Assembly (NCBI GenBank): GCA_034780895.1
Contig: JAUZTB010000011.1
Span: 74,429,312 to 74,493,311 of the forward strand
DNA length: 64,000 nucleotides
Direction of reading: 5' to 3'
DNA from: Rhynchobatus australiae
Lineage: Eukaryota
A program made the translations under genes and the position numbers. How positions within the stretch are numbered: the stretch's first letter is position 1; each line of letters begins with the position of its first letter. Of this stretch, positions 37,381 to 38,504 are shown one piece after another. The notes below the pieces were generated by a model. It had not been told where the DNA came from. It saw only the letters and a list, made by a program, of their open reading frames with translations, and ran no database searches.

Positions 37381-37680
37381 AAATCAATAAAGAATACTTT
37401 GAGACTTTTTTTTACAGGTTTTTGAGTGTTGCATCAAAAACATGTCCATTGCAAAAGACGTTGGAGACCTGAACTAGCAAACATTGCGTATGCAATAAAA
37501 TGGAAGCTAAATGAAATTCCTATTTAACAATATTAAATATTTTCAACCTTTTTTGTTTGCCATGTTTTATCCCATTCCTTTTGTGGCTATTTTGTTTTTG
37601 TTTAATTTTATTTGGGTGTGGGAGGAGAGAAGAGAATAGATTATCTATCTCACATTTATTATACTATTGCTTTGCTGCAG

Positions 37681-37707
37681 ATCATTTCCACCATCCTTAA
37701 ATCAAAG
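37681..37707 (+). CDS. MYCBP2: Candidate 27-nt alternative microexon (IISTILKSK)
   Basis: tgctttgctgcag| 27 nt open frame |gtaaat; phase 0-0 matches the host intron; no homology support. Confidence 0.6.
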
Positions 37708-38504
37708 GTAAATGTCTGGTTGGTTGGATTTTTGTGACTTTGCTGTTTGGTCTTAAGCATGTAACTGAGGCATTTTGACAATTTCAACTTGAATTAAAAG
37801 AACACGTGCACAAATATGGCAGCTACCTTAAGTAACAAATTCATTACAATTTCTTGGCGTCTCAATTAGGACCCTCTTGATGTTTGTCTTGAGCTTTGTT
37901 GCTTGGGTTGTCTTTAATGCTGGTAGTGGAATTGGGTGCATGGATGTCATATTGTATCAGGTAAGTTGAAAATGGGCATGGTTGGCTCCCCGTAATATGC
38001 TTTTGTTTTTAATAAAAGAATCAAAGGTGTTGAGCTTTTAGGAATTAATCATGCTAAAAATTAGTTTGTTTATTGAACTTGGCTCTGTTTCCAGGTTAAT
38101 TTATTAGCTCTGGTTCCACTGGGCACAAGCAAGCACAGTATAAAAAGTCTCAGCAGAATTTTTTTCATTGTCCAAGATTGCTATCTTCTAGATATTGGTT
38201 GCTTATTGAACTCGTAAAATGGTGCAATTAACTTCCTAGGAAGAAATTTATCAAGCAATTTGTTTCTGTAGGTAATAGAGAATACTTACAATCAAAGAAG
38301 ATAGCAAGGTGGGACCAATTTCTGGATTAAGATGTCAATTAATGTTTTCCTTAAAGTACGCATTTGTGATCAAAAGTTTTTGTCAGTGGGATCAGTGATT
38401 TAAAAATCATGAAAAGATGTGAGGGGAAGTTCTGGGGTATCAGATGAATTGCTCGCAAAATTGAGGATAACACCCTATTGTCATTTATATCCAGTCTGCT
38501 GGGG

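Follow-up and report, generated by a model that had tools for sequence, protein, structure and literature searches.

The stretch of DNA analysed here, 64,000 nt long and referred to as the window, contains the middle part of MYCBP2 on the + strand, the gene to which the locus had been assigned in the original prediction. MYCBP2 acts through FBXO45 in axon growth and degeneration, and Pam splicing and Myc binding are reportedly the subject of a 2006 study by Santos et al., going by its title. The long MYCBP2 exon shares 93-95% identity with ray and skate proteins, 89-91% with sharks and 73-75% with ray-finned fishes; on these identities the source is a batoid. The intron of interest lies just past the FBXO45-binding domain (Table 1), and no second copy of the region was found in the source's own genome. 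Its flanking exons meet at a junction, VD/EPK, that falls 76 residues past the G of a GLRxR sequence, which we infer to be the GxRxR motif of FBXO45 binding. Binding of FBXO45 by an FBD1 fragment is reported to be blocked when G2404, R2406 and R2408 are mutated (PMC10945567), and FBD1 is reported to make up the N-terminal, conserved portion of the Myc-binding domain (PMC4806438).

In an AlphaFold model of an insert-free homologue (P0004), two confident beta-rich domains (residues 108-189 and 227-308), the first of which is named SH3_3 by Pfam, are separated by a low-confidence linker; the junction comes after residue 191, beyond the last strand of domain 1 and at the start of this linker. A search for solved structures of the junction region found none. 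Judged from the model, an insert at the junction would be structurally tolerated, a property that says little about whether the candidate described below is used.

Table 1. Coordinates of the features in and around the host intron of MYCBP2 (positions of the window).
Feature	Position	Strand	Remarks
MYCBP2 exon upstream of the host intron	32867..33007	+	closes the first SH3-like (FBD1) domain, ...LLVPVD
Host intron	33008..39688	+	6681 nt, phase 0; longest among the introns mapped in the window
Candidate branch point CTCAC	37649..37653	+	A at -29 from the acceptor; from the yUnAy consensus
Two UGC motifs and TGCAG acceptor of the candidate	37668..37680	+	UGCs at 37668 and 37673
Candidate microexon ATCATTTCCACCATCCTTAAATCAAAG (IISTILKSK)	37681..37707	+	27 nt, AG/GT, phase 0
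GCATG motifs, possible Rbfox sites	37757..37980	+	at 37757, 37938 (TGCATG) and 37976; no listed difference in relative J
Alternative 91-nt frameshifting exon	37870..37960	+	nearest scoring upstream AG to the 37960 donor; 89 nt in relatives; no RNA support
Probable remnant of the bony-vertebrate 75-nt cassette exon VVFNAGSGIGCMDVILYQ	37907..37960	+	54 nt, donor CAG/GTAAGT, GG at the acceptor position
High-copy interspersed repeat	38506..38662	.	2719 candidates in the genome; abundant in the RNA runs of a relative
Exon downstream of the host intron	39689..39913	+	opens EPKSITDD...; inner donor at 39805

The candidate microexon had been proposed as an alternative exon with an upstream architecture of the SRRM4 type, and the description of its sequence was largely accurate. 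The 27 nt form 9 stop-free codons in phase 0-0, like the host intron, within the 3-27 nt, frame-preserving class, and are flanked by ...tattgctttgctgcag upstream and gtaaat downstream. The branch point consensus is yUnAy, and UGC lies between a branch-point-like CTCAC and the AG, a feature of SRRM3/4 microexons; the architecture is SRRM4-like. Three TGC triplets near the acceptor had been counted; all are present, the third being the acceptor's own TGCAG, so that two independent UGCs are left. The upstream stretch is AG-free as claimed for 39 AT-rich nt (the last AG stands at 37638-39), with a purine-rich block directly before it, and by eye no strong polypyrimidine tract set back from the AG was present. 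The three GCATG motifs are where they had been placed, only the middle one being a full TGCATG; their occurrence within 300 nt has a Poisson P of 0.004 for a window picked after looking. With matrices built from 30 splice sites of the window, the acceptor scored 5.5 and the donor 9.6 bits, strong against the range of 4.6-12.1 for donors of the window and joint second-best in the host intron. A 22-nt pattern across the acceptor had no match in metagenome contigs.

The frequency with which such a pattern would arise by chance depends on the thresholds applied. Within 41.9 kb of mapped introns no second sense-strand pattern with UGC was found, and on that strand the candidate alone passes any of four threshold sets. 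Thresholds placed at the candidate's own scores predict 0.03-0.07 patterns per 41.9 kb of intron, a figure that overstates the case, while the four untailored sets predict 0.27-1.67 per 41.9 kb and 0.04-0.27 per host intron and return 0-2 matches on the antisense strand. One microexon-like pattern per window is therefore ordinary, and one in the host intron is mildly unusual.

Proteins of other species were examined for inserts at the junction. Of 270 proteins, 79 lacked a flank and 191 had both; among the latter, 86 were insert-free, 104 carried about 25 residues and 1 was an aberrant model, with a 9-residue insert in 0/191. The 25-residue insert (75 nt) occurs in mammals, birds, reptiles, amphibians, lungfish, coelacanth, sturgeon, gar and teleosts, in agreement with the earlier mention of a different, longer insert at this site. 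More distant homologues that were inspected had no insert there, nor did any of the 30 chondrichthyan isoforms listed, out of roughly 290, in which only the flanking exons precede EPKS; these included the X1 isoforms of four sharks and 7 ray isoforms (15 members were listed of the 268-member main cluster), and the listing of a second cluster added no further shark or ray isoforms. In 19 of the 30 the upstream exon is joined straight to EPKS, showing that the flanking exons are joined directly (VD/EPK) in other sharks and rays, and the remaining 11 skip one or two upstream exons. The peptides of the candidate and of the remnant described below were both absent from 401 proteins (50%-identity representatives).

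Five ray and skate isoforms carry an 8-residue insert, VTKFSSRV, elsewhere in MYCBP2 (outside the window, at about residue 3672 of the alignment), demonstrating that annotation can capture inserts of the candidate's size. The insert was found in none of the other proteins matched, and it is possibly a batoid-specific 24-nt microexon.

Transcript evidence was drawn from relative A, for which about 18-24% of each of three raw RNA runs of unspecified tissue (X21, X22 and X23) was read against region 37000-39810; DNA-like contigs of relative J were compared over the same region. RNA depth in the last bin of the downstream exon was 13.6, about 3 and 18.7 over the three runs, and in the candidate's bin it was 0 in X21, 0 in X22 and 3 in X23. 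The X23 reads over the candidate are three copies with one start and with differences on both intron sides, and thus represent one unspliced molecule. Among the joints listed for the three runs, all but two of the total, none led to the candidate, and the depth leaves no space for placed pieces, a negative that is weak because depth was low, the tissue was unspecified and placement may fail for a 27-nt piece that has two mismatches. Loose read ends at 39689 were crowded out by the repeat, and the upstream exon lay outside the compared stretch, with skip junctions uncounted. Combined, the protein and RNA surveys give no support to the claim that the 27-nt stretch is an included alternative exon (0/191 proteins, 0/30 isoforms listed, no spliced read placed in three runs), and its use as an exon is considered unlikely.

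Conservation of splice sites and frame in related species had been put forward as a check on the candidate. Both are kept in the two close relatives, which retain the AG, the GT and the UGCs at a divergence of about 5% that gives the comparison low power; nothing exceeds the intron background. At 37690-91 both relatives read TT for AC, a non-synonymous change of Thr to Phe (2/27 bases, one codon), and most of their differences are held in common, so that A and J are non-independent. Going by the 32 differences listed for J across 37595-38235, divergence was 2/27 in the candidate, 5/107 in its flanks and 2/54 in the remnant (P=0.52) against an intron background of 4.7%, with no significant conservation over any of the three. 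Patches near the candidate and the remnant that had looked conserved disappeared once boundaries not fitted to the data were used.

The original prediction did not mention a second feature, 200 nt downstream of the candidate, which was first found when the intron was scanned for the 25-residue insert (VVFNAGSGIGCMD at 37907). This probable remnant lies in the same intron, strand and phase as the bony-vertebrate insert. With a profile of the insert it ranked 1st of 127,918 windows over columns 1-13 and 1st of 127,894 over columns 1-17, column ranges that were chosen after the match was seen, and 8th over all 25 columns. Under an unbiased local score built from 14 non-redundant inserts, 37907 was the best position in the intron, a value reached by 25/600 simulated introns. 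Its profile score is 26, against 44-56 (roughly double) for true inserts over a comparable length, and its 3' half does not match the profile. The frame runs for 18 codons and then reaches CAG/GTAAGT in phase, and this donor is the intron's only AG/GTRAG and its best-scoring donor. The bases at 37905-06 are GG, not AG, with no difference listed there for J; a functional in-frame acceptor and the 75-nt length are both absent. The nearest AGs upstream of the donor are 67 or 91 nt away and out of frame, and the one at 67 nt is missing in the relatives. The two sites at which J differs within the 54 nt are both synonymous in frame, with about a 10% chance of this given that 17/54 transitions are synonymous. 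The stretch 37907-37960 is considered probably homologous to the bony-vertebrate cassette insert.

A local tandem duplication relating the candidate to the remnant was considered and rejected, since 198 of about 500 random intron pairs scored equally. A kinship between the candidate's peptide and the 25-residue insert was likewise rejected, the candidate being absent from the top matches.

Both features can be set against known systems. The remnant and the 25-residue insert share the protein junction (VD/insert/E) and phase 0-0, and the remnant matches the N-terminal half of the insert (VFNA..G...MD) but is 54 nt long and lacks the AG, whereas the 27-nt candidate does not resemble the insert in sequence. 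A 75-nt Mycbp2 exon, MmuEX0030319, is listed with a mean dPSI of -10.8 in the brain of nSR100/SRRM4 mutant mice (PMC4387716, Table S2) and, going by its length, probably encodes the 25-residue junction insert. For SRRM3/4 microexons, UGC is reported between branch point and AG in 74-79% and donors are reported as strong, and high conservation from shark to mammals is described for their behaviour, for the exons and for the flanks (bioRxiv 10.1101/2024.09.17.613571). The candidate resembles these neural microexons of 3-27 nt (PMC4387716; bioRxiv 10.1101/2024.09.17.613571) in length, frame, UGC placement and good donor, but none of the vertebrate proteins examined contains a counterpart of it, and no inclusion was seen; because it does not share the conservation feature, it is not classed as a member of the group. 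A literature search, with subscription journals and VastDB outside its scope, found neither a report of a 27-nt MYCBP2 exon at the junction nor one of MYCBP2 exon loss in cartilaginous fishes.

The remnant is similar to pseudoexons and to cases of lineage-specific loss of alternative exons in its intact donor, lost acceptor and residual coding likeness; it would differ from them in the age of the event, cartilaginous fishes having long ago lost an exon that every bony-vertebrate group sampled retains. The reading preferred here, with slightly better than even confidence, is that the candidate is a normally skipped cryptic look-alike near a decayed copy of the 75-nt cassette (37907-37960). The cassette would have been present in the jawed-vertebrate ancestor and, on the line leading to the source ray, would have lost 21 nt of its length as well as its acceptor. 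Having no acceptor, the old cassette would then be inactive and the flanking exons joined directly (VD/EPK), with the candidate presumably unused and the GCATG cluster either a leftover of, or a part of, the old exon's regulatory setting. Any insert at the junction is predicted merely to lengthen the flexible linker from the FBXO45-binding SH3-like domain to the second SH3-like domain.

That the candidate is instead a real neural microexon of the ray lineage, with SRRM3/4 acting on the UGCs, Rbfox on the GCATGs and 9 residues replacing the lost 75-nt exon, is doubtful. It would account for the single sense-strand pattern in 41.9 kb (0.04-0.27 being expected in the host intron), for its position in the very intron that holds the bony-vertebrate cassette, for a strong donor and a UGC between branch point and AG that fit published features, and for splice signals unaltered in two relatives; the lineage-restricted 8-residue insert elsewhere in ray MYCBP2 also favours it. 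It is opposed by the insert-free chondrichthyan isoforms (0/30 listed, 7 of them from rays), by three RNA runs in which no spliced read was placed, by a non-synonymous change with no conservation dip, and by an unremarkable polypyrimidine tract with a purine-rich block upstream. A fuller form of this idea is exon turnover, in which rays lost the SRRM4-sensitive 75-nt exon of other jawed vertebrates, its fossil staying behind in the intron. The replacement would be a 27-nt neural microexon newly arisen 200 nt upstream, which would make use of the old exon's Rbfox motifs and alter the linker next to the FBXO45-binding domain; this stronger claim appears improbable.

Two further explanations were weighed. 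Both the candidate and the remnant may be products of chance, the 75-nt exon having arisen in the stem of the bony vertebrates, with a cassette at this site always absent from cartilaginous fishes, which seems quite improbable. The profile match by itself has a P of about 0.04, neither stretch carries a conservation signal, and chondrichthyans and the distant homologues inspected are insert-free, all as this explanation would have it; against it, the best profile match runs from column 1 to the intron's best donor, which it meets in phase, an arrangement allowed at about 25/6681 in-phase places. Least probable of those weighed here is that the 37960 donor is live and pairs with the AG at 37868-69, giving a frameshifting (poison) exon that would send part of the MYCBP2 mRNA to nonsense-mediated decay under regulation by the GCATGs. 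The acceptor at 37870 scores 5.5, like the candidate's, the donor, at 12.1, is level with the window's best true donor, and a non-triplet length persists in the relatives (91 vs 89 nt), but no spliced reads were placed there in the three runs, the length differs from that in the relatives, and there is no conservation dip over 37867-38000 (5/134).

The present standing of the locus is that of a modest evolutionary note with an unproven candidate microexon. If the remnant is real, cartilaginous fishes lost a neural cassette that bony vertebrates have retained throughout, and the exon dates to the jawed-vertebrate ancestor. If the microexon were also real, one neural exon would have taken the place of another within a single intron, a compact natural example of such replacement.

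Several observations on the surrounding gene were made in addition. A second repeat of lower copy number lies near 37100-37280. A GC donor (TAG/gcaa, window 1065-1066), adjoining a run of N, is apparently used by the intron that follows an exon whose last base is 1065. The inner donor of the downstream exon corresponds to 5/30 shark and ray isoforms that lack 36 residues at the start of the second SH3-like domain. One or both of the exons at 31628-31744 and 32867-33007, which encode the FBXO45-binding SH3-like domain, are those skipped in the 11/30 shark and ray isoforms mentioned above; skipping of the FBD1 exons is also seen in bird and turtle isoforms, and the isoforms that skip them are predicted to lose FBXO45 binding.
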